Source: an archaeon
GTDB lineage: Archaea; Halobacteriota; Syntropharchaeia; Alkanophagales; Methanospirareceae
DNA: 41,770 bases
Direction of reading: 5' to 3'
NCBI GenBank assembly: GCA_030019325.1
Contig: JASEFB010000001.1
Location: forward strand, 1 to 41,770
Shown here: positions 4,751 through 38,910 of the stretch, in pieces
Layout: each line of letters starts with the position of its first letter
How positions within the stretch are numbered: position 1 is the stretch's first letter
Notes under the pieces: generated by a model
The model's database searches: none
Told to the model about the DNA's origin: nothing
Seen by the model: only the letters and a program-made list of their open reading frames with translations
Made by a program: the position numbers and the translations under genes

Positions 4751-4774
4751 GGAAAAGGATGGTTGTTTAGAAGA

Positions 4775-6041: not shown

Positions 6042-6043
6042 GT

Positions 6044-6529
6044 ATGAAAAAATACGATGTTGCTTTAGCTCTCGCAAAAACAGGAAATGATAGCAAACTC
6101 GCTTTAGCTCGGATGCTCATTGATATGCTGGACTTAAATGAGTTATATGAGCGATTGGATTACGGAGGGATGTTCGGAGATCTCAAGAATCTAAGTGATG
6201 AGGAGTATTTTGACTTATTAGGAATAGATCCGAAAGAAAGAGCAGAAAGACTTGAAGATATAGATGTAGATGATCTTAGAAATTATGACGTGGCGCTTGC
6301 GTTAGCTACTGCTGGAAATATAGAACAGGCAAGACGAGTTATGGAGTTAACTAATCCAAAGAAAGAATTAGATGAATCCGATTTTGCGAATCTTGAGATA
6401 CTTCCCGAGACCATAGATGCAGCAGTGGAAAAAATGATGGAAGTTAGAGAAAGATTAGAAAGGGAGAAATTACGAGAAAAGCTTAAGAATATCTTGTTAG
6501 AAAGCATTATGCAGAAAAGCCAAAAATAA
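6044..6529 (+). CDS. Hypothetical protein with a duplicated YDVALALA-x-x-GN motif (island gene 3)
   Basis: 161 aa. KKYDVALALAKTGN (residues 2-14) and RNYDVALALATAGN (89-101) are conserved at the protein level but differ at synonymous positions. The next start codon follows 1 nt after the stop. Confidence 0.6.
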   Translation: MKKYDVALALAKTGNDSKLALARMLIDMLDLNELYERLDYGGMFGDLKNLSDEEYFDLLGIDPKERAERLEDIDVDDLRNYDVALALATAGNIEQARRVMELTNPKKELDESDFANLEILPETIDAAVEKMMEVRERLEREKLREKLKNILLESIMQKSQK

Positions 6530-6530
6530 A

Positions 6531-8203: not shown

Positions 8204-8218
8204 AGACGAGTGCCACGT

Positions 8219-8291
8219 GCCGCCGTAACTCAGTTGGTAGAGTGCCCGGCTGTTAACCGGATTGTCACAGGTTCGAGTCCTGTCGGCGGCG
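8219..8291 (+). tRNA. tRNA-Asn: tRNA-Asn (anticodon GUU)
   Basis: Cloverleaf by hand: acceptor GCCGCCG/CGGCGGC, D arm ACTC-AGTTGGTA-GAGT, anticodon loop CTGTTAA (GTT at 8252-8254), T arm ACAGG-TTCGAGT-CCTGT, discriminator G. No encoded CCA. Confidence 0.9.
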
Positions 8292-8475
8292 TTGCGGCTC
8301 CTCTCCAACCAACGCTTTATTTTTGGGTAGCCGTAAAGTGCTTTGAACAGGTGTTCTTTCTACTTAATGTCTTTTAAATGGCAGACCCATAACACCTATT
8401 TTTGCAAAAATTTTTGCTTATTCAAAAAAGCAGGCAGAGGAGGTGGCTCACCCGCCAAAGAGAGGAGTTTGAAAG

Positions 8476-9110: not shown

Positions 9111-10040
9111 TCACATAACTACGATAACCAAAAGAATCATGCAGACTTTTGCAGTAATACTACTCAGATACATTATAGCGGTTATTTTCATACCGAGCTT
9201 CCCAAACAAAGAGATATTCGTGGAAAGACTGTATTTCAGATATACCAGCGTTATCACTAAGATACTTCCAATAAGTAGTGTTATAAGAGCTTGTTTTGCA
9301 GTGATCACTTCTTTTGCAAGCAGCGCGGCAATAATAGCGTAGCCTGCGGAGAAATGAGCTAAATCTGCAATGAGCGCGGTTATTACCTCCCCGGGTAAAT
9401 CTAATACCCGTAGAATGGGATCGAAGAGTATACTGATATAGTTCATAATTCCACGTGTGAAGAGGAAATCGATGACCAAGAATGCCACCACCATTATGGG
9501 AATTATCCTTATTAATGTGGTAGACGATTTTTTCAGTGCCGTCTTCAGCTTTTGACTAGAGGGTGTTTTCGTGGCATTCACATAGATCTCTTCTTCGCTA
9601 CACGTTAGTGGAGGAAAGTTGACTTTGGCATACATGAAAGCGGCAAAGGATTGTAGAAATGCGGCGAGAAACCCAAGCGCAATGTAGATGCTCCCGATGA
9701 AAGGACCTAAGAGCACGAGTGCGATCGGTACGTGCACTCTGAACAGCGATTCACCAACGACAATAGGAAACGTGCTCATCACCAACGTGAGTATCGTTTC
9801 CTTATCACCAATTTTACCCTCGTGATAGAACCCTGCCAAGGTTGATTTCCCCGCGGTGGGATTGAAGAAGGAAGCGAAGAGAGAAACTGCACCCTCTTTC
9901 GGGAGGTTTGATGCCCGGCAGAACGGTCGTATGAGCGGTGATAATTTTCTCATCGAGTCACTTTCAAGCACGATGTTCGCAATGATCACACCTGCGGTAA
10001 TGAGGAGTACAGATCGGATTAAATAGGTCGCTGTGGTCAT
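9111..10040 (-). CDS. Nucleoside-recognition (Gate) domain membrane protein
   Basis: 309 aa and polytopic. The segment LSPLIRPFCRASNLPKEGAVSLFASFFNPTAGKSTLAGFY resembles the Gate domain of FeoB-C/SpmA-like proteins. Confidence 0.6.
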   Translation of the reverse strand: MTTATYLIRSVLLITAGVIIANIVLESDSMRKLSPLIRPFCRASNLPKEGAVSLFASFFNPTAGKSTLAGFYHEGKIGDKETILTLVMSTFPIVVGESLFRVHVPIALVLLGPFIGSIYIALGFLAAFLQSFAAFMYAKVNFPPLTCSEEEIYVNATKTPSSQKLKTALKKSSTTLIRIIPIMVVAFLVIDFLFTRGIMNYISILFDPILRVLDLPGEVITALIADLAHFSAGYAIIAALLAKEVITAKQALITLLIGSILVITLVYLKYSLSTNISLFGKLGMKITAIMYLSSITAKVCMILLVIVVM

Positions 10041-10178: not shown

Positions 10179-11426
10179 TCACACATCTAACCTGCTCTGT
10201 TTTGTTCTTCGCTCTGCAAGCTTACTCCATCTCCGGTAATCCTTCAATTTCCATGCACCTGCCTTCTTCAGGTCGGGAATCCCACATGCAGGCTCGTTTT
10301 CCGAGAAGTGGCATTGTAAACAATTCCCATCACAACCTGTAACAGGTTCAAACTGCTTCCCATCACCCTGTCTTACATAAATCGGTATATCAAAGCCTTC
10401 GCAATTCCATGAACTCATAAACTCCTTATTCAACCCTACGACCTTCTTCCCACCGAGCGACTCGAACTCCATACAGAGCCCCATCGTCACGTTATGCTCA
10501 GCACAAATCTCGCGTACCATTCCAAACAACTTTCTCCGGTAGTCTATGGAGGCGTGAAGACGCCCACCGAGCTCTTCAGTATACAAGTGGTTCAGCATCC
10601 GTTTCGGAATTCCAGCCCTTTTCTCCAGTTCATCACCTATTTCATACTTCAGTGCTTTGGGAATATCCATACAACTCGTTATTATGTGCCCTGCACCGGC
10701 TTCAACCACCTTCCGCACTAATTCTTCCAATTCCTCTCTTTTATCCGTCACGTAGGGGATTATTGGGTCAATTCGGCACACGGCGAACTTATCCTCATTG
10801 GCAAGCCGTTCTATATTACGCACCAGTTCGTCTGTTGCTGCACCACCTGCCATCAGTCGCTCTCTTTTATCTTCATCCAGCGTGAGAATAGAGACTTCTC
10901 CAAAGGAGTGCTCTTGTTTTTTCATCAATTTTAGGGACTTTTCGCTTATTCTCCCTTTTGTGGTGAGCTTCACCGGGATATTGCGATCGACAAACTCTTT
11001 TATTATCTTCTCACTCAACTGGTATCGTTCATTTATCGGCTGGAACGGGTCGGTAACCGGTGAGAGGAACCCGCAGCTTGCGATGTTGAGCCCGTCCAAT
11101 TGCCGCGCGACTCTTGTATCAAAATCCTTGAATACTGCAACGACCCCTTTCTCTCGAAAGAGCCTGAAATAGCCACCTAACGCATGTGAATAACAGAAGA
11201 GGCAGTTATGGCTACACCCGTTATACGGGTTTATCAAAAGCTTCTCGGCGGTGCATTCTCTATTTCCATAAGGTTCAACTCCATTCCACCAGCCGTGTAA
11301 CTCCTTATTCGAATCAACCAGGATATGAGGTACCGGGGTTTGTATAACCTCAAATTCTTTGGTTCTTCGTCCAAATTCAATGGTTATCGCAGTAGTTTTG
11401 GTATCCATATCTAAAATAGCGTACAC
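10179..11426 (-). CDS. Radical SAM protein (SplB/COG1533-like)
   Basis: INPYNGCSHNCLFCYSH carries the CxxxCxxC cluster motif in the context typical of DNA-photolyase-like radical SAM enzymes. There is a Cys-rich C-terminus (GCDGNCLQCH...ACG). Confidence 0.7.
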   Translation of the reverse strand: MYAILDMDTKTTAITIEFGRRTKEFEVIQTPVPHILVDSNKELHGWWNGVEPYGNRECTAEKLLINPYNGCSHNCLFCYSHALGGYFRLFREKGVVAVFKDFDTRVARQLDGLNIASCGFLSPVTDPFQPINERYQLSEKIIKEFVDRNIPVKLTTKGRISEKSLKLMKKQEHSFGEVSILTLDEDKRERLMAGGAATDELVRNIERLANEDKFAVCRIDPIIPYVTDKREELEELVRKVVEAGAGHIITSCMDIPKALKYEIGDELEKRAGIPKRMLNHLYTEELGGRLHASIDYRRKLFGMVREICAEHNVTMGLCMEFESLGGKKVVGLNKEFMSSWNCEGFDIPIYVRQGDGKQFEPVTGCDGNCLQCHFSENEPACGIPDLKKAGAWKLKDYRRWSKLAERRTKQSRLDV

Positions 11427-19372: not shown

Positions 19373-19439
19373 TGATATATTTGTCATTGATAAACTCATC
19401 TTAACAAATGAATAGAATAGAAAGCGAGGCGTGTATAAA

Positions 19440-19865
19440 ATGCTGTCCAAGGAAGTAGTGGAGAAGATCAAGGAAGAGTTAACGGCATTTGTCGGCGCTG
19501 AGCTTGCGAGCATTGTCCTTTATGGCTCATATGCCGAGGGAAGAGAATCGAAATATTCCGATATCGATATCTTAGTTGTAGTGAGGCGGCATTTTAAAGA
19601 TTGGCGTGCTCGCAGAGAGGGTGAAATAGCGCTGAGAAAAATTTTATATCGTTCTGTCGGTCAGGTCTCACCACGAATTATAGGAGCCGACGTGATTCTC
19701 ACGACCCTGAAAAACTTCAACCCGCTGTTACTGAATATCCTCAAGCACGGTATCCCACTGCTCGATGACGGCACGTTTGCAAAGGTTAAAGAAGAATTCC
19801 AACGCATGGTAGAGGCGAAGATAATAGAACCGAGAGAAGATTATTGGATGGTCGCTATTACATGA
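19440..19865 (+). CDS. Nucleotidyltransferase-domain protein (antitoxin of an NTase/HEPN pair)
   Basis: IVLYGSYAEGRESKYSDIDILVVV is the Pol-beta NTase motif. The stop overlaps the HEPN start (ATGA at 19862). Confidence 0.8.
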   Translation: MLSKEVVEKIKEELTAFVGAELASIVLYGSYAEGRESKYSDIDILVVVRRHFKDWRARREGEIALRKILYRSVGQVSPRIIGADVILTTLKNFNPLLLNILKHGIPLLDDGTFAKVKEEFQRMVEAKIIEPREDYWMVAIT

Positions 19866-20317
19866 ACAATCGCAGTAAAGTCTTCGAGATTGCAGAAGCG
19901 TATCTTTTGGAAGCCTTTACTGACTATGATGCAGTACCCATACTCATCGCGCATGAAAAATATAATCTCGCTGTATATCACGCGCAACAGGCGGTTGAAA
20001 AACTGCTTAAAGCGTGCTTAGCCGCCGAGGGTGCTATTGGCATATACAAACATGAAGTGTTTCGCCATTTCAAAGAGGTGTTCAGTACCAAAATCGATGC
20101 ACAAACGATGAATAGCATAGAAGAGAATGTGATTGAACTCGAAGAAGAATGGGCGCTGTCACGTTATCCCGACTGGGAAGTTGAACCTATATGGATCCCG
20201 TCCAGGGGTTATACTAAGCAGAACGCAGAAGAGAGGAGGAACAACATGAACATTGTCTTCGAGATCCTTACGAAATTTTTGAGAGATAACTACAAGTTGA
20301 AAAAAAAGAAGGAGTAA
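19862..20317 (+). CDS. HEPN-domain protein
   Basis: AVYHAQQAVEKLLKACLAAEG and WALSRYPD are typical of the PF05168 HEPN family. It is the partner of the upstream NTase. Confidence 0.8.
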   Translation: MNNRSKVFEIAEAYLLEAFTDYDAVPILIAHEKYNLAVYHAQQAVEKLLKACLAAEGAIGIYKHEVFRHFKEVFSTKIDAQTMNSIEENVIELEEEWALSRYPDWEVEPIWIPSRGYTKQNAEERRNNMNIVFEILTKFLRDNYKLKKKKE

Positions 20318-20321
20318 GCAC

Positions 20322-20471
20322 ATGCCAACCCATGATATAATTGATAATCGGGAAGGAATCCTGTTAGACCACGTAAAAGGCCTGCTCAGAGTCTCAGAAA
20401 GTGCGAAGTTCGCCGTCGGCTATCCCTTTACCTGCGGATTAAAAACTATTGAGAAGGCGAGGAGCGTGTAA
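20322..20471 (+). pseudogene. 5' stub (49 codons) of a PLD-SNF2 helicase gene, copy 1
   Basis: MPTHDIIDNREGILLDHVKGLLRVSESAKFAVGYPFTCGL... aligns with the start of 23234-24574. Its stop TAA is 1 nt before the Fic ATG. Confidence 0.8.
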
Positions 20472-20472
20472 C

Positions 20473-21510
20473 ATGTATCGTCCAAACTTTACCATCACGA
20501 AGAAAATCCTCAATCACATAGCAGAGATTTCTGCCTCTCGTGAGGTCATACTTAACGCACCGCTGCTCCCTAAATGGGAAGCCAAATTGAGAAAAGAAGC
20601 GATTCTAAAGATGGCGCACCATTCCACGAGTATCGAAGGGAACAGACTCACAATGGACGAGGTTAATAGGCTGCTCCGGGGCGAAGATATAGCGGCATGG
20701 GAGAAGGACAAAAAAGAAGTTCTGGGATACGTGAAGGTTCTGGAATACATAGACAAGCTGGGAGAAGAAGGTGTTGCCTCGATTACTGAAGATATAATCC
20801 TCGAAATACACCGGCTTAATACCCAAGGGATTCTCCCTGATTCTGAAGCCGGGCACTATCGGAACGTGGAGGTTGCTGTGGTTAACGGTCTGGGAAGAGT
20901 TACGTTTCAACCCCCGGAAGCAGCGCAAGTTCCTTCATTAATGAATGGCTTTATTGCATGGCTAAACGGTAAGGAAGCAAAAGAATCATATCCCGCTTTA
21001 GTAAGCGGGATTGCGCACTACGAATTCGTTAGGATACATCCCTTTGTAGATGGCAACGGAAGAACTACACGGGCACTGGCAACCTTAATCCTCTATCTGA
21101 GGGGTTTTGACACGAAACGCTTTTTTGCCTTGGACGATTATTATAACGAAGAACGCAGCAGATATTACGCAGCTCTGCAAACCGTTGACCCACTAACAAT
21201 AAATCTCACACAATGGCTGGGGTACTTTACAGAAGGCGTCGCAGTAAGTATGGGCAGGGTTAAACAAGCCATCTTAGACCTGAGTGTGGATCGGCGCCTC
21301 AAAGAGCAACGAGGACAAATATACCTGAACGATAGACAGATGAAGATTCTCAAATATCTTCAGACCAATCCAAGAATTACCATCAGTGAGATACAAAAAA
21401 TGTTCGATATTAGTAGAGACACAGCAAACCGTGATCTCAAACCACTCTTAGAAAATACCTTAGTGAAAAGGAGGGGAAAAGGGAGGGCGATATACTATGA
21501 ACTGGCTTAA
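20473..21510 (+). CDS. Fic/DOC-family protein with a C-terminal winged helix
   Basis: HPFVDGNGRTTRAL (21037-21072 plus the next two codons) is the Fic motif HxFx(D/E)GNGRxxR. The C-terminus ...ISEIQKMFDISRDTANRDLKPLLENTLVKRRGKGRAIYYELA is a wHTH. The ATG at 20473 is preferred over the TTG at 20449. Confidence 0.85.
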   Translation: MYRPNFTITKKILNHIAEISASREVILNAPLLPKWEAKLRKEAILKMAHHSTSIEGNRLTMDEVNRLLRGEDIAAWEKDKKEVLGYVKVLEYIDKLGEEGVASITEDIILEIHRLNTQGILPDSEAGHYRNVEVAVVNGLGRVTFQPPEAAQVPSLMNGFIAWLNGKEAKESYPALVSGIAHYEFVRIHPFVDGNGRTTRALATLILYLRGFDTKRFFALDDYYNEERSRYYAALQTVDPLTINLTQWLGYFTEGVAVSMGRVKQAILDLSVDRRLKEQRGQIYLNDRQMKILKYLQTNPRITISEIQKMFDISRDTANRDLKPLLENTLVKRRGKGRAIYYELA

Positions 21511-21518
21511 AATAAGAA

Positions 21519-21548
21519 ATCGTCAGATTATCGTCAGATTATCGTCAG
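21519..21548. repeat. 2.7 tandem copies of the 11-mer ATCGTCAGATT, starting 8 nt after the Fic stop
   Basis: Read directly. It is followed by AATGACAAA, the inverse of TTTGTCATT at ~19377. Confidence 0.8.
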
Positions 21549-21560
21549 GTGAATGACAAA

Positions 21561-21725
21561 ATGCCAATACATGACATCATAGATAACCAGAAAAGCATCC
21601 TGTTGGATCACGTAAAAAGTTTGTTAAGAGACTCGGATAGTGCGAAGTTCGCCGTTGGCTATTTCTTTACCAGTGGCCTGGCACCTATTGACAAGGTGAG
21701 GAGTACAAAAAAGAGGAATACTTGA
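21561..21725 (+). pseudogene. 5' stub (54 codons) of a PLD-SNF2 helicase gene, copy 2
   Basis: MPIHDIIDNQKSILLDHVKSLLRDSDSAKFAVGYFFTSGLAPIDKV... aligns with the start of 23234-24574. Its stop is 13 nt before the next ATG. Confidence 0.8.
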
Positions 21726-21738
21726 GGGATTAACTAAC

Positions 21739-23079
21739 ATGCCACTACCAAAGGAATCCCACACAACAGAGCTGAAAAAGTCATTAGCGCAGTTAGACGA
21801 TTCTTTGAAGTCCGTCTGCGCCTTTCTCAACCATAAAGGCGGGACCGTTTATTTCGGCGTGGCCAATGACGGCGAGATTCGTGGTCTGGATGTCTCGGAC
21901 AGAACATTGAGGAAAATATCGCAGCAGATTCATGCAAGGATAAAGCCTGAAATCACTCCTGAACTAAGAGAAATAAAGGAAAAGGGCAAATCAATAATAG
22001 AACTGAAAATCTCGGAAGGCAATAACAAGCCTTACTTCCTTAATGGCGTGGCCTACAAGCGAATAGGAACCGAAAACAGGATTATTCCACCGGATGAATT
22101 GAGGCGAATTATTCTGGAGCAGCGACAAACGAAATGGGATGAGGAGACCTGTGAAGGCGCGACACTAACGGATATTGACGCGGAGAAAGTACAATGGTTC
22201 TTAAGAAAAGCCACGTTTGAACGACGGCTGGAAATAGACCCAGCAATATCAGTAAAAGAAGCGTTGGAACGGATTGGCCTGCTGAAGGAGAATAAACTCA
22301 CCAATGCCGCTATTTTGTTATTCGGTAAAAAGCCGCAACGGTTCTTCATGCAGTCAGAGGTCAGATGTGCCAGATTTAAAGGCACAGAGCCTCTGGAGTT
22401 CATTGATATGAAAGTCTTTGCAGGAACTGTTATTGACCAGCGGGAAGATGCAGTGGAATTCGTCAAAGAGCATATTAAATTGCATGCCAAGATCATTGAA
22501 ACTGAAAGAGTTGAGAGATGGGAATATCCCCTTGAAGCACTACGAGAAGCACTTACCAATGCGCTCTGTCATAGAGATTATGAACTATCAAGCAATGTTC
22601 AAGTTAGAATATTCGATGACAGAATTGAGGTCTGGGGATGCGGGCCGCTACCACAACCATTAACCGTAGAAGATTTAAGAACGAAACACGATTCTATTTT
22701 AAGAAATCCTCTAATCGGAGAATGCTTCTTTTTGATTAAATTTATTGAGCAATGGGGAACTGGTACGAATCGTATTATCCGTGAATGTTTGAACTATGAC
22801 TTGCCAGAACCTCTGTTCGAAGAAGCTGCTGGCAATCTCGTTGTCACCTTTCGGAAGAGTAAATTTACAGAAGAATATCTCAAACAACTCAGTTTAAATG
22901 AGCGGCAGATGAACGCCCTCAACCACCTTAAAGCGAATGAAAAGATCACGAGGAAAGAATACTCGTCTCTGTTTAATTGCTCAACGCGAACGGCGTTCAA
23001 TGATCTTCAGGAGATGATGGATAAAAGGATAGTAAAAAGGAAAGGAAAGGGGAAATATACCTATTATGAGATGGCTTAG
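21739..23079 (+). CDS. AlbA_2 (Schlafen-type) plus HATPase_c_4 (RecG-C-like) domain protein with a C-terminal wHTH
   Basis: ESHTTELKKSL...FLNHKGGTVYFGVANDGEIRGL is the AlbA_2/AAA_4 N-terminus. EALREALTNALCHRDY...IRIFDDRIEVWGCG is the HATPase_c_4 block. The C-terminal KGKGKYTYYEMA wHTH resembles the Fic tail. Confidence 0.8.
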   Translation: MPLPKESHTTELKKSLAQLDDSLKSVCAFLNHKGGTVYFGVANDGEIRGLDVSDRTLRKISQQIHARIKPEITPELREIKEKGKSIIELKISEGNNKPYFLNGVAYKRIGTENRIIPPDELRRIILEQRQTKWDEETCEGATLTDIDAEKVQWFLRKATFERRLEIDPAISVKEALERIGLLKENKLTNAAILLFGKKPQRFFMQSEVRCARFKGTEPLEFIDMKVFAGTVIDQREDAVEFVKEHIKLHAKIIETERVERWEYPLEALREALTNALCHRDYELSSNVQVRIFDDRIEVWGCGPLPQPLTVEDLRTKHDSILRNPLIGECFFLIKFIEQWGTGTNRIIRECLNYDLPEPLFEEAAGNLVVTFRKSKFTEEYLKQLSLNERQMNALNHLKANEKITRKEYSSLFNCSTRTAFNDLQEMMDKRIVKRKGKGKYTYYEMA

Positions 23080-23086
23080 CGTGCAA

Positions 23087-23118
23087 CTACCGTGCACCTA
23101 CCGTGCAATATTTGCACG
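23087..23118. repeat. Two 11-bp-period units (CTACCGTGCA) merging into the palindrome CGTGCAA-TAT-TTGCACG
   Basis: Read directly. It begins 8 nt after the stop of 21739-23079. Confidence 0.75.
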
Positions 23119-23178
23119 CATGCACGTGCTGAAGGTGTAAAAATGCCCATACCAAAGGAGAGAGGTGGTCGCAACCAC

Positions 23179-23247
23179 ATGAATAACCGTAGCAAAGAGA
23201 ACTGCAAGGTGGAGAAGAAGGAGGACTGCTCGAATGTCAACCCATGA
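23179..23247 (+). pseudogene. HEPN relic: mini-ORF retaining only the first 6 and last ~10 codons of a 19862-20317-type gene
   Basis: ATGAATAACCGTAGCAAAG matches the start of the HEPN gene (ATGAACAATCGCAGTAAAG). AGAACTGCAAGGTGGAGAAGAAGGAGGA matches its 3' end (ATAACTACAAGTTGAAAAAAAAGAAGGAGTA). Just upstream, 23143-23165 mimics the start of the AlbA_2 gene (ATGCCCATACCAAAGGAG). Confidence 0.6.
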
Positions 23248-24574
23248 TATAATAGATAACCGTGAAGAAGTCCTGTTAGAGCACGTAAGAAGCTTGCTCC
23301 ACGATTCTGTTAGTGCGAAGTTTGCCGTCGGCTATTTCTTCACCAGCGGGTTAGCACCGCTCATGGACGAAGTACAAAACCTGAATGAACTCAAGATTCT
23401 CATCGGCAATATCTCCAGCAAGAGAACGATCGAGCAGTTAGCAGAAGCGCACATGAATTTAGTCACCGCAAAGCAGGAATTTAACAAGCAATTATTCCTG
23501 AACCCCTCGAAACGAAAACTCGCAGTATCAGAAACGAAAGAGGGAATAAAAACCAGCTTGAGTTTAATTGACCAGACCGACGACAATGAGCAGATGATTC
23601 GAGTACTAAGAGAGCTGATCGAAAAGAACAAAATTAAAATCAGGATTTACACCTCGGGCAGATTGCATTCCAAAGCGTATATCTTCGATTACCCCGAAGG
23701 GCATCATGACAAAGGCAATGCTATAATTGGGTCCAGCAATTTGAGTTTAGGCGGCTTATTAGACAACACCGAATTAAACGCGCTCATTCCTGGTATCGGT
23801 AATCACGAAAAATTAACCGAGTGGTTCAATAGTTTATGGGATTCGAAAAACTCTGCAGAGTTCAATGCTGAATTGATGGAGGAGCTAAAGAACTCGTGGG
23901 CATTAAACGAAGTCCGACCGTATGATGTTTATATCAAAACACTTTATCATCTTTTGAAGGATCGATTAGAGATCGAAGCTGCGGAAGAATTGTTGTGGGA
24001 AGCAACAATGCCCCCGTTAACCACGTTTCAAATCGTAGCGGTGAAACAAGCACTTCAAATACTGAATGATTACGGTGGTGTCTTCGTCGCTGATGTTGTT
24101 GGAACCGGCAAGACATACATCGGAACTGCTCTTTTGAAACACTTACAGATGGTTCACGGGGACAGACCGCTCATAATATGCCCAAAATCATTAGAAGATA
24201 CCTGGAAGGACTTTTGTAGAGAGTACGAAATACAAACAGAATTCCTGACCTTTGGAAAGATAAGCCAAGGAACCATTGATTTGATCAATGACCCGATATA
24301 TCGAAATTTAAACACCGTGTTAATTGATGAAAGTCACAATTTCAGATACCCAAACACAAACCGATATAAGAATTTGCAGCCCTATCTCTACGGGAAAAAG
24401 ACTATTCTCATAACGGCAACGCCCAGAAACAATACCCACGAGGACATATATCATCAAATAAAATTATTCCATCACGACGAGGAAACAACAATTCCCATTG
24501 ACCCCTCGAATCTCAAACGATTTTTCAAGGAGGTTGAGAATGGAAATAAACGGATTCAAGAATTATTACGATAG
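23234..24574 (+). CDS. PLD-nuclease / SNF2-family helicase fusion, 3'-truncated (no helicase C-terminal domain)
   Basis: PLD motif HSKAYIFD...GSSNLS (23666-23740). Helicase motif I GTGKT (24101-24115), II DESH (24326-24337), III TATP. The ORF stops right after motif III (..IQELLR*) and no HELICc-like sequence follows. Probably non-functional. Confidence 0.75.
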   Translation: MSTHDIIDNREEVLLEHVRSLLHDSVSAKFAVGYFFTSGLAPLMDEVQNLNELKILIGNISSKRTIEQLAEAHMNLVTAKQEFNKQLFLNPSKRKLAVSETKEGIKTSLSLIDQTDDNEQMIRVLRELIEKNKIKIRIYTSGRLHSKAYIFDYPEGHHDKGNAIIGSSNLSLGGLLDNTELNALIPGIGNHEKLTEWFNSLWDSKNSAEFNAELMEELKNSWALNEVRPYDVYIKTLYHLLKDRLEIEAAEELLWEATMPPLTTFQIVAVKQALQILNDYGGVFVADVVGTGKTYIGTALLKHLQMVHGDRPLIICPKSLEDTWKDFCREYEIQTEFLTFGKISQGTIDLINDPIYRNLNTVLIDESHNFRYPNTNRYKNLQPYLYGKKTILITATPRNNTHEDIYHQIKLFHHDEETTIPIDPSNLKRFFKEVENGNKRIQELLR

Positions 24575-30494: not shown

Positions 30495-31892
30495 TTACCG
30501 CGCAGGATTTTTGAAATTCTTCCTATGTATCGTATTATACGAGCAAAAGGGCACTATTCTGCCATCTGGCAACCCGTAGTGAATCACACATTTCCTCAAT
30601 CGAGCGCAATCGAAATTGTACGGATCCATGAAATGCATGGCGCCTATAAAGAGAAGGTTGAAATGGAGGTCGCTCAGGTCCTCGTAGTCGTGACTTTTTA
30701 GGAATCCGATAAAAAGGTCTTTTATAAAACCTGGGTGAATATGTTTTAACGCTGCGAAAACGGATATCCTTTTATTTTTATTATACGCTGCTGCTAATTT
30801 TTCCATATCCATGTACTTCGTTATCGGCTCTATTTTTCCTTCAGCTCTTCCCTTTGTCTCGACCACGAGATAAGAAAACGCACCACACGAGAAATGGCAG
30901 CCTACCTCCGATTTGCTAGCCAATGTTCCCAGCAGCATGCTCATGAATGAAGGGGGGAAGAAATCCCCCTTATGAAGAAAGCCGGTTTGTTCTTCTACCT
31001 TCCGTATGATATCAGAAACGGTTATCCGTTCATTGTACTCGTATGAAGTTCTCCCGCAGAAGGAAACCGGCTGAAAATTTACCCCGCGTATAATCGCACT
31101 ATTCTCTACTGCAAATTTTATAATAGCGCCAATTTGGTCGTCATTTATCCCTTTTACGATGGTAGGCACGAGCACGATAGCGGGTTTCGGGCCTGCAGTG
31201 CGGTGGTTTTCGATCGCTTTTCTCTTCAGGTCGAGCAGTCTTCGACCCCGTAACTTCTCGTAGGGGTCTTCTGTTACACCATCAAACTGGAGATACACAA
31301 CGCTTGTGCCTGCGGATTCTATCTCTTTACAATATTCCGCACTCGCAGCCATTTTTACGCCGTTGGTATTCACTTCCACATGGTCGAACTTTCTTCGTGC
31401 GTATGCAATAAGCTCAGGGAGGTCATCTCTGAGTGTGGGTTCGCCACCACTGAACTGAAGTCCAGCAGCATTGGTATTCGATGCAAAATTATCTATTATC
31501 GCTTTTAGTTGCTCGAAGTCAGGATCTCTTTCATATCTACCGCCATTACCGTCACTCTTGGCAAAACAGGTTGGACAGCTCAGGTTGCATCGCATGGTGA
31601 CGTCTATAACACCCAATACGGTGGATGATTCATGCTGGGGGCACAAGCCGCACGAAAAGGGACATTCTCCATTACCGTTAGTTCCTGTTATTTCGCTTAT
31701 TTGCGCTCCTTCGAGGTCTTTCGCTTCAAATCGTTGGTAAAGCTGGTAATCCGACCAGCACAAGTCCTTAAACGCACCGTGTTCCGCACAGCTCTTCTCC
31801 ATGTATACCGCTCCGTTCTCTTCGTACAGGTTCGCATCGATGATGTGATAGCATACCGGGCAGATGCTTTTTGTGGTTCGTATCGGGTTCAT
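30495..31892 (-). CDS. Radical SAM protein of the MJ0619/Tes (COG1964)-like family
   Basis: N-terminal zinc-ribbon-like ICPVCYH...CAEHG, then CPFSCGLCPQH, then the radical SAM cluster RCNLSCPTCFA and GGEPTLRDD. The layout matches my memory of the family of the tetraether lipid synthase / MJ0619. I prefer the start MNPIRTTK (31892), which avoids a 110-nt overlap with the upstream gene. Confidence 0.7.
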   Translation of the reverse strand: MNPIRTTKSICPVCYHIIDANLYEENGAVYMEKSCAEHGAFKDLCWSDYQLYQRFEAKDLEGAQISEITGTNGNGECPFSCGLCPQHESSTVLGVIDVTMRCNLSCPTCFAKSDGNGGRYERDPDFEQLKAIIDNFASNTNAAGLQFSGGEPTLRDDLPELIAYARRKFDHVEVNTNGVKMAASAEYCKEIESAGTSVVYLQFDGVTEDPYEKLRGRRLLDLKRKAIENHRTAGPKPAIVLVPTIVKGINDDQIGAIIKFAVENSAIIRGVNFQPVSFCGRTSYEYNERITVSDIIRKVEEQTGFLHKGDFFPPSFMSMLLGTLASKSEVGCHFSCGAFSYLVVETKGRAEGKIEPITKYMDMEKLAAAYNKNKRISVFAALKHIHPGFIKDLFIGFLKSHDYEDLSDLHFNLLFIGAMHFMDPYNFDCARLRKCVIHYGLPDGRIVPFCSYNTIHRKNFKNPAR

Positions 31893-31911
31893 AGTTGTTA
31901 CAATTATTGAA

Positions 31912-34167
31912 TCAGTCCAATTCTCCATTAATTGGCTCTCTCGGTGTCCAACTATACATTCCTCTTGCCTCCGGGGGATATTTTGCTGGTTTTGAAATAT
32001 CAATTCCCTCGCGTAGGCCAAGGTGGTGTGTGAGGTAAAGTGCTTGAATCACGAGATCAATAGCTCCTAGAACCGAGTGCCGATCAGTTGAAAGTTCAAA
32101 TACCTTCATTTGCTTCTTAAGATACTTTTTAATCGTATTCGCAAGATCATTATATGGTGGGCATCGTAGAATGACAGCTATTTTATTGCTGCGGTGGCGA
32201 TAAGCACTGATATATCGGCCGTGAGTGAAATTTTTTAGTTCGGAATATTCAATAGTTGCGATTCCTCCTTCGACGAATTTTGATTCCAAATCAACAAGTG
32301 CTGGTCTAGCCCAACCACTTCCAAGAGCAATAAAATGATAGTTGCTTGGTGATCCCGAAAGACCTTCACACATTTCACGTGCTCGGAAGTCGGCCGCCTT
32401 AAAGATGCTTGAAAGATTTTTATACTCAAATAGCTGATCTAAATCCTCTTTAAGGTTATTAGGGGCGAAAATAGCCAGAAGTGATCCCAGAGTAGCGAGA
32501 TACCCTACTGTAGCCACAAAGCCTTGGCGATGTTTTGAAACAATGAATACTTGCCAGCCAGAATCACCAGCACGCTTAGAAAGTTCTGAATCAGGATCGC
32601 TGGTAAAAACTAACCCATTAGTCACTCTTAGTGCACGAAGTTTATCAAAAGATCGCAAAATGTCAGGATTGGATCCTCTATATGAAATTAAAACAGGTAG
32701 TATTTCATTTAAAGGTGTGCTAATTGACTCTAACTCATAAGGAGGGATAGCTCTAGCAGGGTTACCACGAAGTGAAAAAAGTAATTGTTCACCAAACACC
32801 GCAGCACTGAAGGAACCACCGGAACCAATAAACAAGAGGGGTGTAGATTTAATCATAGATTCAATCTCATCTCTCTTTTTTGAGTTGAGTAACTGGAATT
32901 GTACCTGCGAATAAGTCTCACTCATCGGAATAAGCGCTTGCGCTAACTCCGCTCCAAATTCATTTTTTCGGGGGTATTTACTTGATATTAGCGATTTTTT
33001 TCGATTTGTGCCCATTACTTTCGGCTCGCCACAGATATGACATACACCATACGCTTGGAATCTAAAAGGAAACTTAAAAGGTTCTGGTATACCAGAGCTA
33101 GGCGGTAATGAGGAGAAAGCTTGTCCGTTGTAGGCAACCTCGGCCCCAAGTGTGAGTGCTTCAGCTGCGTGAACTTTGTTAGTAGCTAAAACCCTTGGAT
33201 AACTCCTAGCTCCGTAGAAGCTGCAGCTCAAAGAGGCTAATCCTTGCGCTACAGAAAGCATCTTTTCTTCAAACCCAATTTCAAGTCTTGCAGACTTGTT
33301 GAGGATTTGAGCTAAAATCGCACCGATTAAAATATCCCCAGCACCAGCGGTGTCACATAATCTCAAGCATTTTATAGCTGGAAATTCAAACTTTTGAAAC
33401 TCCGATCTTGGTCCACGGATGAACCCGTAAACACCTTGTTCGCTGTCGGTTACAATTAAAAGTTTAATTCGCTCAAATCGTTGCGAAAAAGCATCCAAAG
33501 ACTCAAATTTATTTTGTGACTCAAGTCTATTCCGTTTAAGAAAGTTTTTGAATATACGCGAGTTTACCTTAACCATCGTGGCAATTGCAATGAGTTCCTG
33601 AGCTTTCGATCTTGAGCTTTCAAAGCTATCAAAAGAAAAATCAAAAGAAACAAATTTATTAGCTTTTGAAGCCGTTCTTGCTAGCATAAGTGAGCTATCA
33701 TTTGCACGGTCTGTATGTACGATTTGGCAGTGTCGAACTGTTTCCAACATTTCTTTAGTAATATCCCATTTATTAAGAACAACACTGCGACTTATAGGAG
33801 CGCCGCAATCTGGGCATTTATGTAAGAACTTATGTGAATGGTTGGATTCAGAAATAACCTGGAAATACTGCCTAGATCTCCTAAACTGACCAGCTCCACC
33901 TCTCTGTATTAACCATCGAGTATTTACTCCAAAGTTTTTAATGTCTTGCTTAATTATTTCAGACTGAATATCATTTCCAATTGCTCCAATAATGGCGGTT
34001 TTGAAACCCAAAGTTCCAAGAAACGACAATGTATTACCTACTGATCCACCTCCTGCACTTCCCAAATATTTAAGCGATGTTTTCTGGTTAGGAGTAATAG
34101 TTTTCAAGAAAATATGATCCACCGCAACGAGTCCCATGCCAAGAACATCAAGCTTCATTTTCATCAC
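31912..34167 (-). CDS. PfkB-family kinase fused to a double SIS (phosphosugar-binding) domain
   Basis: GSAGGGSVGNT (GG motif) and CDTAGAGD (33334-33354) are PfkB signatures. Cys pairs are CPDC (residues 118-121) and CHIC (376-379). The C-terminal ~300 aa carry two SIS-type repeats, LLFIGSGGSFSAAVFGE and HFIALGSGWARPALVDLESKFVE (about 32008-32850). Confidence 0.75.
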   Translation of the reverse strand: MMKMKLDVLGMGLVAVDHIFLKTITPNQKTSLKYLGSAGGGSVGNTLSFLGTLGFKTAIIGAIGNDIQSEIIKQDIKNFGVNTRWLIQRGGAGQFRRSRQYFQVISESNHSHKFLHKCPDCGAPISRSVVLNKWDITKEMLETVRHCQIVHTDRANDSSLMLARTASKANKFVSFDFSFDSFESSRSKAQELIAIATMVKVNSRIFKNFLKRNRLESQNKFESLDAFSQRFERIKLLIVTDSEQGVYGFIRGPRSEFQKFEFPAIKCLRLCDTAGAGDILIGAILAQILNKSARLEIGFEEKMLSVAQGLASLSCSFYGARSYPRVLATNKVHAAEALTLGAEVAYNGQAFSSLPPSSGIPEPFKFPFRFQAYGVCHICGEPKVMGTNRKKSLISSKYPRKNEFGAELAQALIPMSETYSQVQFQLLNSKKRDEIESMIKSTPLLFIGSGGSFSAAVFGEQLLFSLRGNPARAIPPYELESISTPLNEILPVLISYRGSNPDILRSFDKLRALRVTNGLVFTSDPDSELSKRAGDSGWQVFIVSKHRQGFVATVGYLATLGSLLAIFAPNNLKEDLDQLFEYKNLSSIFKAADFRAREMCEGLSGSPSNYHFIALGSGWARPALVDLESKFVEGGIATIEYSELKNFTHGRYISAYRHRSNKIAVILRCPPYNDLANTIKKYLKKQMKVFELSTDRHSVLGAIDLVIQALYLTHHLGLREGIDISKPAKYPPEARGMYSWTPREPINGELD

Positions 34168-36058
34168 CCCGAATCAGCTTTTTCGCCAAGATAAGGTTTT
34201 TATTCTCATCAGTTTGGGTTGGTATTAACGATTCTTGGACTTGAATGTTAATATCCCAGATTCCTGCAATTGCAGTAACTACCAACATTGAAGTTATGTC
34301 ATTACTGGGTATGAGGCACATCCTTTCGTAATCTATATTACGATTTTCTCGATAACTCTCAAGTAAGGCGACCGTACGATGAAAAGCAATTGCAGGACTT
34401 TCAGCCGGTAAGTATAACATCTTCTCTGTTCTTACGTGAAATCCATCTATATACTCGGCATGCATTGATAATAGTGAATCTAGACTATCGTTACACGAGA
34501 GAGGAAAAATCAAAGCTGGAATAATAATTGTATCCTCAGGTAAATCTGTAGACGGCGAGGAAAGTTTTGGTCCATATACGGAGAGAAAGGGTACAATGAG
34601 TTCTGATGCTGAACCGATATCGTTTTGGTTTGTAATTCTCATTTTGTTTTTGGTTTGTTTGAATTCATTATTGGAATATGCTGATTCATGAACTATACGG
34701 AACTCTAATGCCATGCTTTTCTCAATCTTCCCTTTTGGGACTTTTTCAGCGGCGTCATTAATACTTTTCTCTGAAAAAAGTTCTAAAATTAGCCAATTGG
34801 GTTCAATTAGCTTCTGCAAATCTTTGTATATTTGAGATTCGGGGTCTATTGAAGCTGCCAAGTCAAAGTTAATAGATGAAATATCCCCGAGTTCGACAAG
34901 TGTAAATCGAGAGAGGGCTGAAAGCGAAACTTGTCGTTGACAATTCTCTTTAAACATGCCTTTTTGTTCTTCTAGATCTATATCATCATAGAGCATCTTC
35001 GTGTGTCGATGATGAGCAACCCGAGGAAAGAGCGGGTACCAACCGTTGTCAGAATGCCATAGAAAGTAAAGGCTATTATTTGGGCAATTCGCCCCGATAA
35101 TCAATGAAAGCCCTCCAGCGCCAAGTCCAAAAAGGCATCCCCTACCTTTTCGAGTGTGATTATCCTCTTGGAAACGGTCGTAATACTTCACTAATAATTT
35201 AACTGCAGATTCATCAACCGACTTTTCTCCATCTACCGTGTGAATAAGCCATTCAGATGGTGGAACAATTAAAAGTGGTAAAATATTGACTTCTGCAATT
35301 CCCGTAACATCACCAGTGATCTGGTCTAAGCGCTCTTGGAGTACAGATTCCACATGAGAAGAAGCTATTAGAGGAACATAGTAAACATCTGCGTTTGCAG
35401 CGACTGGTCGCCATCTACTGAAGAAGGACCGCAACTTACCTTTTGACTCGCGCTCCTTACCTTTAAATTCAAATCGAAGGGCGCTAGTGCCACTACCACA
35501 AAACTGGTCGAGAAGAAAAAAACGCTTTAGAGAGCCGATTTTGGTTTCAATTTCTCTAATATCTGCTTCTCCCATTTTGTAATATTCAACAAAATTCTCT
35601 TTTTCCAGTTGAGGAAAACGTCGTCGTGCTTTGCGTCTGAAATAATCAAAGCCTATATCATCAGAGAGAGCAACAAATATGTTTCTTTTTATCTCTCGGA
35701 TAAAAACTTCTTCCAGAGACCCACTGTTTTTTGATGTATAGGACTGTATTACCGATTGCCATGAAAGTGTTGAAGCAAGGTCAAGCGCAAATTCTACTAA
35801 AGCGCGGAGTTCATTCCTTGATATGTATCTGATACAATTTACAAGATTTAGCGCTAGGCTGCGGTCTTCAGGGCTAAAGTTTGAAAGCCATTTAAGAAGA
35901 CGCCTTTCAAAGGTATCGCCGGGAAGGTACATCTCGTATCTGTCAAATCTTCTTTCGGCATTAAAAATTAAGCCCTTCAACGACATACAGGATATCATCT
36001 CTCTTGGTATGCCAATTTCTTCGAGTTTTCTCGCTAAAGCTTCCTCTTTGACCATCAT
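34148..36058 (-). CDS. 636-aa protein with a phosphoribosyltransferase-like PRPP-loop motif; otherwise unassigned
   Basis: Residues 180-193, FFLLDQFCGSGTSA (35480-35521), resemble the PRPP-binding loop of type I PRTases. The C-terminal ~260 aa have no recognisable motif. It overlaps the downstream kinase gene by 20 nt. Confidence 0.6.
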   Translation of the reverse strand: MMVKEEALARKLEEIGIPREMISCMSLKGLIFNAERRFDRYEMYLPGDTFERRLLKWLSNFSPEDRSLALNLVNCIRYISRNELRALVEFALDLASTLSWQSVIQSYTSKNSGSLEEVFIREIKRNIFVALSDDIGFDYFRRKARRRFPQLEKENFVEYYKMGEADIREIETKIGSLKRFFLLDQFCGSGTSALRFEFKGKERESKGKLRSFFSRWRPVAANADVYYVPLIASSHVESVLQERLDQITGDVTGIAEVNILPLLIVPPSEWLIHTVDGEKSVDESAVKLLVKYYDRFQEDNHTRKGRGCLFGLGAGGLSLIIGANCPNNSLYFLWHSDNGWYPLFPRVAHHRHTKMLYDDIDLEEQKGMFKENCQRQVSLSALSRFTLVELGDISSINFDLAASIDPESQIYKDLQKLIEPNWLILELFSEKSINDAAEKVPKGKIEKSMALEFRIVHESAYSNNEFKQTKNKMRITNQNDIGSASELIVPFLSVYGPKLSSPSTDLPEDTIIIPALIFPLSCNDSLDSLLSMHAEYIDGFHVRTEKMLYLPAESPAIAFHRTVALLESYRENRNIDYERMCLIPSNDITSMLVVTAIAGIWDINIQVQESLIPTQTDENKNLILAKKLIRGDENEA

Positions 36059-36129
36059 TGATACGTTCTATCCCTTATCTGAAAGCAGGTTTCGCCTATT
36101 TATCATTTACTTCTTATTCGTTATTACAT

Positions 36130-36768
36130 TTAATAACCCAAGGTGGTGATGTTCTTATCCAAAATCATGAAGAGTTCAGTGAGCTGTTCTATATGCACAT
36201 CACCCGCTGATTTCGATCCCATACCGATTACAAAACAACCTACGGCTTTGCCAGCCTGATAATCAGCTTTTGTATCTCCCACGAGTATCACGTGCTCCGG
36301 CTTCACGTTGAGCCGTTCACACGCCTTTATCACAATTTCAGGATCAGGCTTTCCTCTTTTCACCTCATCCCCGGTAACAATCACGTCAAAATGGTTAGAG
36401 AGATAGAAGTGCTCTAATATCTTATTGACGTTCTCACGCGGCGTATTCGTGACTAACCCTACTTTAAGTTTATATTTCTTTTTCGTGCGGCGTAGAACTT
36501 CTCCGGCACCTGGAAACAGCTCGATAAGTGCTATCAACTTCCGTTGTTCCTGCACGCAATACTCCGCGGCGTCTTCACCGAGCTGTAACGCATCGAGGTT
36601 ATGCCTCAGGTCAGGCCCCCAGCAGTTCGCTTTAAACACATCTCTACTCAGTTCTTTCTTCCCATAAGCTCTTAGCATCCTATTAAACGCTTGATACCAG
36701 CTCTCTAATGAGTTTATCAGGACACCATCAAGGTCAAATAAGATCGCTGCTATTTTTATCTCGTTCAT
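36130..36768 (-). CDS. HAD-IA family phosphatase
   Basis: AILFDLDGVLINS (motif I DxD), LVTNTPR (motif II) and K...VGDTKADYQAGKAVG (motifs III/IV). Confidence 0.85.
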   Translation of the reverse strand: MNEIKIAAILFDLDGVLINSLESWYQAFNRMLRAYGKKELSRDVFKANCWGPDLRHNLDALQLGEDAAEYCVQEQRKLIALIELFPGAGEVLRRTKKKYKLKVGLVTNTPRENVNKILEHFYLSNHFDVIVTGDEVKRGKPDPEIVIKACERLNVKPEHVILVGDTKADYQAGKAVGCFVIGMGSKSAGDVHIEQLTELFMILDKNITTLGY

Positions 36769-37252
36769 TGTACGTTGCGTGTAGGTATTTGGTAATAGCT
36801 TACTTAAATTTTTTCGTGTTCTGAAACTATTTCAAGAACTCCTTTTTCAGGATCACCAAAAGCGCTACTTTCGGTAATAGGTGGTATATGCTTCGCTTTC
36901 GGTTACGCCCACATTGTCCACGGTAACTTTATATAAACCACAAAATTATATGAAATTGCGGCATGCATTATACATTAAAGTAATGCTAAAAATGGCATTC
37001 AATAAAAAATCTTTTCAGGTTGTAGAAAGTGTAAACAAGCCCAGAATTAAAGATAGATTACTGGACGATAGACTGGGATTATAAGGGCGATATATTCCAC
37101 AACCAGTGGCAGAGTTTCAGGGTGAAAAAGAATCCGATGGTAGATTATGATGCAATGTATAGGTATGCGGAAGCTGGGGAGTACCAGGTAATGGTTAAGG
37201 TTATTGATGTTTTTTGAAACGATACCAATAAGGTTTTGAAGCTGAGGGTAAA

Positions 37253-38634: not shown

Positions 38635-38822
38635 ATTTTCTCTCTCCCGGTGTTATGCCTCAGGTCTGGCCTCCAGCAGTTCGCCTTAAACGTTTCTCTG
38701 CTCAGTTCTTTCTTCCCGTAAGCCCTTAACATTGCATTAAACGCTTGATACCAGCTTTCTAATGAGTTTATCAGAACACCATCAAGGTCAAATAAGATTG
38801 CTGCTATTTTTCTGGTGGTCAT
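38631..38822 (-). pseudogene. 5' stub (~57 codons) of a HAD phosphatase gene, duplicate of the start of 36130-36768
   Basis: MTTRKIAAILFDLDGVLINSLESWYQAFNAMLRAYGKKELSRETFKANCWRPDLRHN matches the HAD N-terminus. DNA homology spans 38652 to about 38860 versus 36599 to about 36810, including ~40 nt upstream of the ATG. Its stop overlaps the mntA ATG. Confidence 0.8.
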
Positions 38823-38910
38823 CGTATGTAGATAGGTAGTAATAGCTTAACATCATTTTAAAATATTTGCGGCGTTTATACTTTAAAGGGGGTGATAAAG
38901 CTGACAACTA

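Follow-up and report, generated by a model that had tools for sequence, protein, structure and literature searches.

What is a pair of overlapping genes, one encoding a protein that resembles a phosphoribosyltransferase (PRTase) and the other a fusion of a sugar kinase to a phosphosugar isomerase, doing in an archaeal neighbourhood rich in toxin–antitoxin (TA) genes? The pair, here called the ‘cassette’, lies at positions 31912–36058 of a 41,770-nt stretch of DNA from a member of the Methanospirareceae (contig JASEFB010000001.1, assembly GCA_030019325.1; the whole stretch is referred to as the window). A first-pass annotation, made from the sequence alone, had left the cassette unassigned and had noted that a kinase, an isomerase, a PRTase and an adjoining HAD phosphatase are the parts needed to make or destroy a phosphoribosyl or nucleoside-like metabolite, a role that is still plausible. 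The best reading of what we describe here is an ATPase-less, differently fused archaeal form of a conflict system built around PRTase-CE, an effector family whose name was reportedly coined by Nicastro et al. 2023. We lean modestly towards the view that the cassette is a ligand-gated defence system acting against nucleotides or phosphoribosyl pyrophosphate (PRPP).

Gene 1 (34148–36058, 636 aa, ATG start) fuses a PRTase-CE effector domain to a second module, termed X, and gene 2 (31912–34167, 751 aa, GTG start, reading MMKMK) fuses a PfkB kinase, a four-cysteine (Cys4) site and a double SIS module; these genes, their domains and their two immediate neighbours are all on the (−) strand. The effector half of gene 1 (35003–36058, aa 1–352) consists of an N-terminal helical region and the PRTase-CE domain, of which aa 56–346 match Pfam PF24390 (PRTase-CE) at 87.3 bits (E 2e-24, cut-off 27) over profile positions 3–253 of 253, and the PADLOC PRTase_III-A models, drawn from type III-A retrons, at 1e-16. 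The PRTase-like character first suspected from a single motif was thereby upheld, and that motif, the putative PRPP-binding loop FFLLDQFCGSGTSA, lies exactly where it had been placed (35480–35521, aa 180–193). The loop agrees with the PRPP motif VVILTDTIGSGNQ reported in the Retron-Eco11 effector (PMC12746101). Every aligned relative shown has D or E at position 184 of gene 1, within the loop; the residue after it is D in ATPase-containing relatives and Q in the ATPase-less archaeal clade to which the window belongs.

A second signature of retron-type PRTase-like effectors, G311-x14-P326-N327-N, is found at 35072–35128 (GLGAGGLSLIIGANCPNNS). ‘Gx14PNNxP’ has been reported as distinctive for retron-associated PRTase-like proteins (PMC12746101); gene 1 reads G311-x14-P326-N327-N328-S-L, the last position being L, F, I or P in the family and not strictly P. 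G311, G316, N324, P326 and N327 are invariant across PRTase-CE relatives, and 25 positions of the domain are invariant across the wider subfamily. This motif region, 36 residues long, is also the sole part common to gene 1 and the model of the anti-phage PRTase of DS-32. By its profile matches the N-terminal part of gene 1 is a PRTase-CE family member and a predicted retron-type conflict effector, ‘CE’ standing for conflict effector, a group predicted to target nucleotide pools (PMC12871103). The AlphaFold model of gene 1 is of good quality (pLDDT 87, pTM 0.91), and from the latter value the two halves are predicted to pack as one body. Searched whole against the PDB with Foldseek, the model returned generic Rossmann matches only (rmsd >12 Å, none significant), and the gene 1 sequence profile likewise found nothing significant in the PDB, a guanine PRTase aligning at the PRPP loop with E 0.65; among viral predicted structures the best match was a ‘PRTase-CE domain-containing protein’ (1e-7). 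The effector belongs to the retron/defence clade of PRTases rather than to those of nucleotide salvage.

The rest of gene 1, which had at first seemed to match nothing recognisable, includes module X (34151–35002; aa 353–636, the start being at about aa 353), a fast-evolving alpha/beta region. PRTase-CE (~356 aa) and X (~293 aa) are encoded separately, by neighbouring genes, in most relatives, and X of the window aligns with the separate X of such ‘split’ cassettes at 96% hhalign probability (E 4e-9). These separate proteins in turn match PADLOC CARF6 directly (6e-10 in L008, 2.6e-9 in L014, 3e-4 in L012 and 9e-4 in L005), over the same region as do those of distant relatives, and align with CARF6-type proteins at 90–92% hhalign probability. 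Full-length matches to CARF6 were obtained for the gene in the X position of the five-gene operons described below (4e-93 and 5.7e-87) and for X of Loki-type loci (5.6e-29). Six X proteins had no match in Pfam, and phmmer, run exhaustively with X against 1.84 billion representative proteins, returned three matches only, all of them fused homologues of gene 1. A beta-alpha-beta pattern is present in the gene 1 model at aa 487–626; Foldseek of the whole 636-aa model, X not having been run separately, gave no CARF match. The fused X of the window is the most diverged form. One loop reads P-G-G-[TS] in split proteins versus P-S-N-D-I-T-S here. X evolves much faster than the enzymes. Its conserved positions are prolines and hydrophobic residues only, with no polar residue among them, and it is therefore probably not catalytic. 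We infer that X of the window is a divergent CARF6-type ligand-sensor domain, the link being transitive and supported by conserved gene position, X being fused to or adjoining PRTase-CE in every architecture encountered. With such a module the logic of the cassette is no longer that of several enzymes side by side but that of an effector fused to a sensor and accompanied by enzymes.

The kinase domain of gene 2 (33205–34134) is of the PfkB (ribokinase) family: aa 12–321 match Pfam PfkB at 75.6 bits (6e-21, cut-off 25.8), the two signature motifs are intact (GG motif, aa 36–45; DTAGAGD, aa 272–278), and Foldseek with the gene 2 model (pLDDT 84) retrieves ribokinase, sulfofructose kinase and ketohexokinase (E ~1e-15, template-modelling score ~0.75). 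Two CxxC pairs lie within 33028–33816, C118/C121 (CPDC, aa 118–121; 33802–33816) and C376/C379 (CHIC, aa 376–379; 33028–33042). Both PfkB motifs and all four cysteines are invariant in 26 homologues, and the cysteines probably form one structural site, with predicted Zn binding, that links an insert of the kinase to its C-terminal tail. The Cys4 site was considered as a substitute sensor for the missing ATPase, an idea that was rejected because the stand-alone kinases of ATPase-containing operons carry it too. No NCBIfam equivalog reached its cut-off with gene 2, fructokinase, ribose-1-phosphate kinases and RfaE domain I all falling far below, and a substrate assignment from these models was dropped on that account.

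The double SIS module (31963–32970; Pfam SIS at aa 439–566) is of the GlmS isomerase, NagB-II deaminase and FrlB class and has phosphate-binding loops at aa 448–452 (GSGGS) and 615–619 (LGSGW). A profile of the C-terminal ~350 aa found, in the PDB, NagB-II glucosamine-6-phosphate deaminase (3hba/8eol, 3e-11), then 1j5x, 2aml and GlmS (3tbf), the alignment spanning both SIS halves of these NagB-II/GlmS-type structures. The K-x-x-E...H-G block of that family aligns with an invariant ESK-x-x-E...ELKN-x-T-H-G-R block of gene 2 (DLESKFVEGGIATIEYSELKNFTHGRY, 32212–32292, aa 626–652), whose E, H, G and R do not vary among 13 diverse members, SIS–HAD fusions included; the catalytic roles of these residues we take to be those of their counterparts in GlmS (Glu488/His504). 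On this aligned active-site block, together with general knowledge of GlmS, NagB-II and FrlB, the module looks catalytically competent for an isomerisation, deamination or deglycation of the amino-sugar-phosphate/Amadori type. Homologues of gene 2 fall into 28 protein clusters in a database of 5.8 billion sequences, and the full-length ones all have the same architecture. Pfam, Foldseek and the PDB profile thus agree with the domains initially read from gene 2, namely a PfkB kinase and two SIS repeats, and its CPDC and CHIC pairs are confirmed as well.

Are these genes a unit? Seventy-seven related loci were gathered by targeted look-ups and from species genomes and metagenomes; 73 of the 77, along with the window, were scored with hidden Markov models built locally for each module, and de-duplication at 80% identity left 41 lineages. 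PRTase-CE adjoined the kinase–SIS gene in 28/29 lineages with an evaluable flank, the lone exception being a weak SIS-only match. Recurring as it does in 28 of 29 evaluable independent lineages, the pairing is non-random, far beyond chance, and the pair is syntenic across genomes while moving between contexts. The HAD phosphatase, adjacent in 32/39 evaluable lineages and fused to the SIS module in ATPase-containing relatives (L018/L020/L076), is the probable fourth component, which agrees with its inclusion at first pass. HAD genes of relatives belong to two subfamilies, HAD_2 and Hydrolase_3, occupying the same slot, which argues that the system needs the activity and not a particular gene lineage. 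In the window the slot holds a HAD-IA phosphatase gene (36130–36768, 212 aa) with its DxDG motif intact (FDLDGV) and a Pfam HAD_2 match of 2e-39.

The modules occur in four arrangements: (i) the window type, HAD, PRTase-CE–X fusion, PfkB–SIS×2 fusion; (ii) the split type, PRTase-CE, X, PfkB–SIS×2, HAD; (iii) the Loki type, X, an ORC-CDC6-like ATPase and PRTase-CE, divergent from PfkB–SIS×2 and HAD; and (iv), in more distant relatives, a five-gene type comprising a SIS×2–HAD fusion, PRTase-CE, an ORC-CDC6-like ATPase (PF24389), CARF6 and a solo PfkB. The same five modules appearing in alternative fusions is strong evidence that they work together. The ORC-CDC6-like AAA+ ATPase was present in 6/41 lineages, including all the non-archaeal-type loci sampled; the context of one ATPase-containing relative was bacterial-looking, and the PRTase-CE subfamily of type (iv) numbers >200 protein clusters, including one whose name comes from a Pseudomonadota bacterium. 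The cassette is most likely a compact, ATPase-less archaeal form of this larger, widespread PRTase-CE operon.

Within these arrangements some loci have features of their own. In Loki-type loci (L015, L057, L058, L060 and L064) the arm with the effector (X, ORC-CDC6-like, PRTase-CE) and the arm with the enzymes (PfkB–SIS, HAD) are divergently transcribed; these loci have lost both CxxC pairs of the kinase, which are kept in the stand-alone kinases of ATPase-containing operons, and read E-D in the PRPP loop. Nine metagenomic loci (L043–L047 and L050–L053) have a ~1 kb gap between PRTase-CE and the kinase that the X profile does not detect as X, and which presumably holds an even more divergent version of it. 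On a Bathyarchaeota genome contig (L016, 7004–9141) the kinase–SIS gene is broken into at least five open reading frame (ORF) pieces, with the upstream PRTase-CE and X intact, so that this is apparently a decaying copy of the cassette.

Distribution is sparse and context variable. The kinase–SIS gene was found in 5 of ~185,000 species genomes, all archaeal and from four or five groups (Syntrophoarchaeum, two Bathyarchaeota, a Loki-type Promethearchaeota and a Thermoplasmata), and essentially always beside PRTase-CE and a CARF-family module; the closest homologue of gene 1 is from a Methanophagales archaeon. Flanks vary even among close relatives: L001–L003 lie between an RLI ABC protein and a SpoU methylase, and the cassette of the window between tetraether lipid synthase (Tes) and MNT/HEPN genes. 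Neighbours elsewhere include PIN with an integrase-like gene (L005), an HNH endonuclease gene immediately downstream (L015), RHS (L011) and many unannotated small ORFs. Neither gene has relatives on IMG/VR viral contigs, and a viral origin was rejected on that ground.

The two genes of the window overlap by 20 nt, or by 17 nt if the first ATG of gene 2 is the true start, and the gene 1 stop codon (34148–34150) falls inside the MMKMK start region of gene 2. This arrangement, and the AT-rich 71-nt spacer that separates gene 1 from the HAD gene (36059–36129, GC 0.32), were as first described; the spacer, for which an Rfam scan found no family match, is a possible internal promoter region. An early impression of lower GC than in the flanks was also confirmed (0.396 and 0.405 in gene 1 and gene 2, versus 0.449 in the HAD gene and 0.459 in the gene for Tes) and became sharper at third codon positions (GC3 0.334 and 0.315, versus 0.493 and 0.489, i.e. 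~0.49), the other housekeeping genes of the window having a GC3 of 0.44–0.61. On this difference in GC3 the two-gene core is compositionally foreign; the adjoining HAD gene is not. The neighbourhood does hold the TA and defence-type genes attributed to it: MNT/HEPN pairs, PIN toxins, Fic, Schlafen/AlbA_2, PLD-SNF2 and a DDE transposase.

How does the cassette compare with systems already known? Type III-A retrons, such as Retron-Eco11, have a homologous effector domain with which gene 1 shares the PRPP loop and G-x14-PNN, and in retron and cassette alike the effector is followed by an accessory module, fused or separate according to lineage. The retron, however, comprises a reverse transcriptase (RT), multicopy single-stranded DNA (msDNA) and the effector, with a winged-helix domain that is either part of the effector or encoded downstream of it, whereas the cassette has no RT, no non-coding RNA (ncRNA) or msDNA and no winged-helix domain, its accessory module being CARF-like, with three sugar-phosphate enzymes added and archaeal hosts. 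No RT gene was found in the flanks of the window cassette (HAD, Tes), nor any RT-sized gene between or beside the modules of the 70+ related loci; Rfam recognised only a tRNA-Asn in the window, and there are no inverted repeats in 30–41.8 kb. Membership of the retrons was rejected for want of both RT and ncRNA. Retron-Eco11, the one member to have been studied, depletes PRPP on activation.

The five-gene operon (L018/L019, L020 and L076/L077) has homologues of all five modules of the window and shares the Cys4 site of the kinase and the catalytic motifs. It differs in possessing the ORC-CDC6-like ATPase (PF24389), in its fusions (SIS–HAD with solo PfkB and solo CARF6, as against PRTase-CE–X and PfkB–SIS in the window) and in its PRPP loop (DD, as against DQ), and X of the window is far more diverged. 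PUA-Calcineurin-CE-HAD of E. coli ECOR28 combines a sensor-fused ‘-CE’ effector with a HAD phosphatase to form a two-enzyme sink for dNTPs (PMC12871103), and the cassette resembles it in carrying a ligand-sensor domain on a ‘-CE’ effector, predicted here to target nucleotides, with an obligatory HAD partner. A multi-enzyme nucleotide sink and abortive infection are proven for that system and are proposed for the cassette; its effector is a metallophosphoesterase and its sensor PUA-like, with no kinase or isomerase, whereas the cassette has a PRTase, a CARF-like module and both of those enzymes. The CARF effectors of type III CRISPR systems (Csm6, Can1/Card1, CARF-adenosine deaminase and CARF-HAD, the last noted in PMC12871103) likewise join a CARF-family sensor to an enzyme, and some act on nucleotides, but the cassette has no CRISPR-Cas or Cas10 nearby and its CARF6-type module is highly diverged.

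FrlD/FrlB and GmhA/HldA/GmhB present the same combination of superfamilies, PfkB with SIS and with or without HAD. The cassette differs from both in lacking a catabolic operon context and in being tied to a defence-type effector and sensor, and GmhA has a single SIS domain. Identity with FrlD/FrlB was rejected: the model for FrlD, fructoselysine 6-kinase, gives gene 2 20 bits against a cut-off of 247, and no locus examined had frl-type neighbours. We know of no description of a CARF domain partnered with a PRTase effector. A literature search found no description of PRTase-CE with Cdc6, ribokinase or SIS, Nicastro et al. 2023 and Makarova et al. 2020, the likeliest sources, being outside its reach. 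The Pfam models PF24390 (PRTase-CE) and PF24389 (ORC-CDC6-like ATPase) have consecutive accessions, and CARF6 models exist in PADLOC; computational work has therefore probably picked up the larger operon already. The first-pass statement that no characterised system has this composition holds insofar as the search found no experimental work on any member, and calls for qualification in that the effector family is named in Pfam and the cassette appears to be a reduced form of a widespread operon.

In the mechanism we favour, the PRTase-CE domain of gene 1 would be the killing or arresting activity, attacking nucleotide supply: it would use up PRPP, or else cleave or divert the ribose-phosphate–base linkage. 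X, as a fused CARF-type sensor, would restrain it until a small nucleotide-like ligand arises in infection. The PfkB kinase, the GlmS/NagB-II-type double SIS and the HAD phosphatase would act as a coupled sugar-phosphate-processing trio, and we prefer to see them as co-effectors, downstream of or parallel to PRTase-CE, that would carry ribose-phosphate, amino-sugar-phosphate or phosphoribosylamine-type products onward to an irreversible depletion; this preference is founded on analogy with the HAD partner of Calcineurin-CE in PUA-Cal-HAD. The conflict-system interpretation draws on the ATPase of relatives, the patchy distribution, the variable flanks, the foreign GC3, the MNT/HEPN, PIN, integrase, HNH and transposase neighbours, and the lack of relatives on viral contigs. 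There is precedent for the effector: in Retron-Eco11 the PRTase catalytic site is required for defence and PRPP falls by ~50% on triggering (PMC12746101), and in DS-32, a validated system, the toxic half is a PRTase.

Several points weigh against a ligand-gated defence system. A defence role, though most likely, is deduced from context; the target of the effector (PRPP or nucleotides) is proposed by analogy, and the gating by X and the order and substrates of the three sugar enzymes are likewise putative. X of the window has no CARF match in PADLOC even at E ≤ 10, and in direct comparison with CARF6-type relatives hhalign gives 49% at best, so that its CARF link is transitive. The second acid of the PRPP loop is replaced by Q, and the chemistry may differ or be weakened as a result. 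The cassette has no known ligand-generating enzyme (Cas10, CD-NTase or TIR), and the ORC-CDC6-like ATPase, the potential infection sensor of the larger systems, is missing. PfkB, SIS and HAD enzymes are well known from metabolism, housekeeping genes surround several loci (L001–L003 and L008–L010), and the HAD gene of the window, being host-like in codon composition, may belong to the host and not to the insert. Finally, the effector of Retron-Eco11 is not toxic alone (PMC12746101).

What else might the trio do? It is possible, though unlikely, that it makes the molecule that X senses, or removes it as a ring nuclease would, converting a common sugar phosphate to a rare sugar phosphate or bisphosphate that switches PRTase-CE on, in the manner of GmhA (SIS), HldA/HldE (PfkB) and GmhB (HAD). 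SIS, PfkB and HAD enzymes make up the heptose-1-phosphate pathway of ADP-heptose synthesis, a set that the cassette mirrors; the RfaE/HldE kinase domain and ribose-1-phosphate kinases match gene 2 weakly, below threshold, the catalytic motifs are all strictly conserved, and a CARF-type sensor needs a ligand for which the cassette encodes no other candidate synthase. GmhA, however, is single-SIS, whereas gene 2 has a double SIS that belongs with the amino-sugar enzymes of the GlmS/NagB-II class, and in the ATPase-less form it is not obvious how a constitutive three-enzyme pathway would depend on infection. The CARF ligands known so far are oligonucleotides rather than sugar phosphates. There is, moreover, experimental precedent for HAD enzymes as co-effectors (PMC12871103). 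A bolder and less probable version would be CARF signalling with neither CRISPR nor cyclic oligonucleotides, the sugar trio making or processing a non-nucleotide messenger that a CARF-derived domain reads so as to control the PRTase effector. That the messenger is derived from a sugar phosphate or phosphoribosylamine, and is used by Asgard, anaerobic methanotrophic (ANME)-type, Bathyarchaeia and ammonia-oxidiser-like archaea, is equally speculative.

The trio might instead be protective. PRTase-CE could phosphoribosylate an amine on a macromolecule or metabolite, an adduct that the kinase, an FrlB-like deglycase and the phosphatase would undo in uninfected cells, much as the NADAR partner may oppose the DS-32 PRTase, or DarG opposes DarT; we consider this highly improbable. 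DS-32, in which a PRTase is paired with a NADAR glycohydrolase-like protein and which its authors liken to DarTG, supplies the precedent. Double-SIS deglycases such as FrlB free amines from phosphorylated Amadori products after the action of a PfkB kinase (FrlD), and the SIS module of gene 2 is of the class that includes them; JGI labels gene 2 homologues ‘ribokinase family / FrlB-like’. N-phosphoribosylamines also rearrange to ribulosamine phosphates, by the chemistry of TrpF and HisA. Yet an antidote of this kind leaves the CARF-type sensor and the ORC-CDC6-like ATPase without a role, three enzymes are unusually complex for one, gene 1 and the DS-32 PRTase have only the 36-residue motif region in common, and PRTase-CE is not known to modify macromolecules. 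It is also quite improbable that the cassette is ordinary accessory metabolism, a horizontally mobile pathway that salvages or builds some unusual nucleoside, glycosylamine or amino sugar, the FrlD/FrlB-like catabolism offered at first pass as a mundane alternative included. All four enzymes are in metabolic superfamilies, some loci are set among housekeeping genes, and no transporter-independent toxicity is known. In the loci examined, however, the kinase–SIS gene was never accompanied by transporters, regulators or other sugar-amine catabolic genes, no locus lay in a sugar-catabolic operon, and kinase–SIS is essentially never without PRTase-CE and a CARF-family module. An AAA+ ATPase of the ORC-CDC6-like type would be out of place in a simple pathway, the effector groups with the retron/defence PRTases without significant match to a solved PRTase, and the distribution is extremely patchy.

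A ligand-gated defence system, our preferred reading, would bear on several matters. Attack on nucleotide pools is an emerging theme of immunity in which PRTase-type effectors are barely understood, one retron having been studied with PRPP depletion as the readout. Here a PRTase effector is linked to a CARF-family sensor outside CRISPR, together with three sugar-phosphate enzymes that are strictly conserved and for whose presence none of the current defence mechanisms accounts. The system could reveal an effector cascade, or a class of immune messenger, not seen before, and what CARF6-type domains sense; if the signalling by a non-nucleotide messenger raised above were true, its chemistry would be new to immunity and would amount to a new small-molecule immune pathway in archaea. 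It would also exemplify the defence biology of poorly studied archaea (ANME/Syntrophoarchaeia, Bathyarchaeia, Asgard and Thermoplasmata), and the minimal two- to three-gene archaeal form, being ATPase-less, is the simplest to reconstitute.

The gene on the far side of gene 2 proved to be unconnected. The radical SAM gene (30495–32021, with a mechanically called TTG start), which had been drawn beside the cassette as a possible member, scores 494.4 bits against NCBIfam NF045702 (Tes; cut-off 450, equivalog level) and is the glycerol dialkyl glycerol tetraether (GDGT) lipid synthase Tes, a housekeeping bystander; it was seen in none of the other loci and was rejected as a cassette part. As called, it shares 110 nt with the end of gene 2, and the true start is probably an internal Met just past the gene 2 stop codon. 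The window also encodes Ftr, which with Tes fits a host of the ANME-1/Syntrophoarchaeia type.

On the other side of the cassette, a direct repeat of 178 nt at 87% identity relates 38652–38829 (−) to 36598–36775 (−): the 5′ end of the HAD gene (~53 codons and a few upstream bases) is copied 2 kb upstream as a truncated fragment. Between the copies are an MNT/HEPN pair and a solo MNT gene, with the DDE transposase just beyond, and the repeat points to an earlier insertion or rearrangement by which the HAD gene was split or copied.

Elsewhere in the window, a defence/toxin-type cluster at 19431–24574 contains an MNT/HEPN pair, Fic joined to a winged-helix domain, Schlafen AlbA_2 together with HATPase_c_4, and an apparently truncated N-terminal fragment, 446 aa long, of a PLD-nuclease/SNF2-helicase. 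A low-GC block at 4500–8300 (GC 0.32–0.35, against a window mean of 0.42) ends at the tRNA-Asn (8218–8292); its ORFs have a GC3 of 0.26–0.27 and, except for one weak PD-(D/E)XK, no Pfam match, and the block looks like an integrated element or genomic island at a tRNA gene. A second, unrelated radical SAM gene (10179–11426, (−)) adjoins a gene for a ‘Gate’ nucleoside-recognition membrane protein (9111–10040, (−)).

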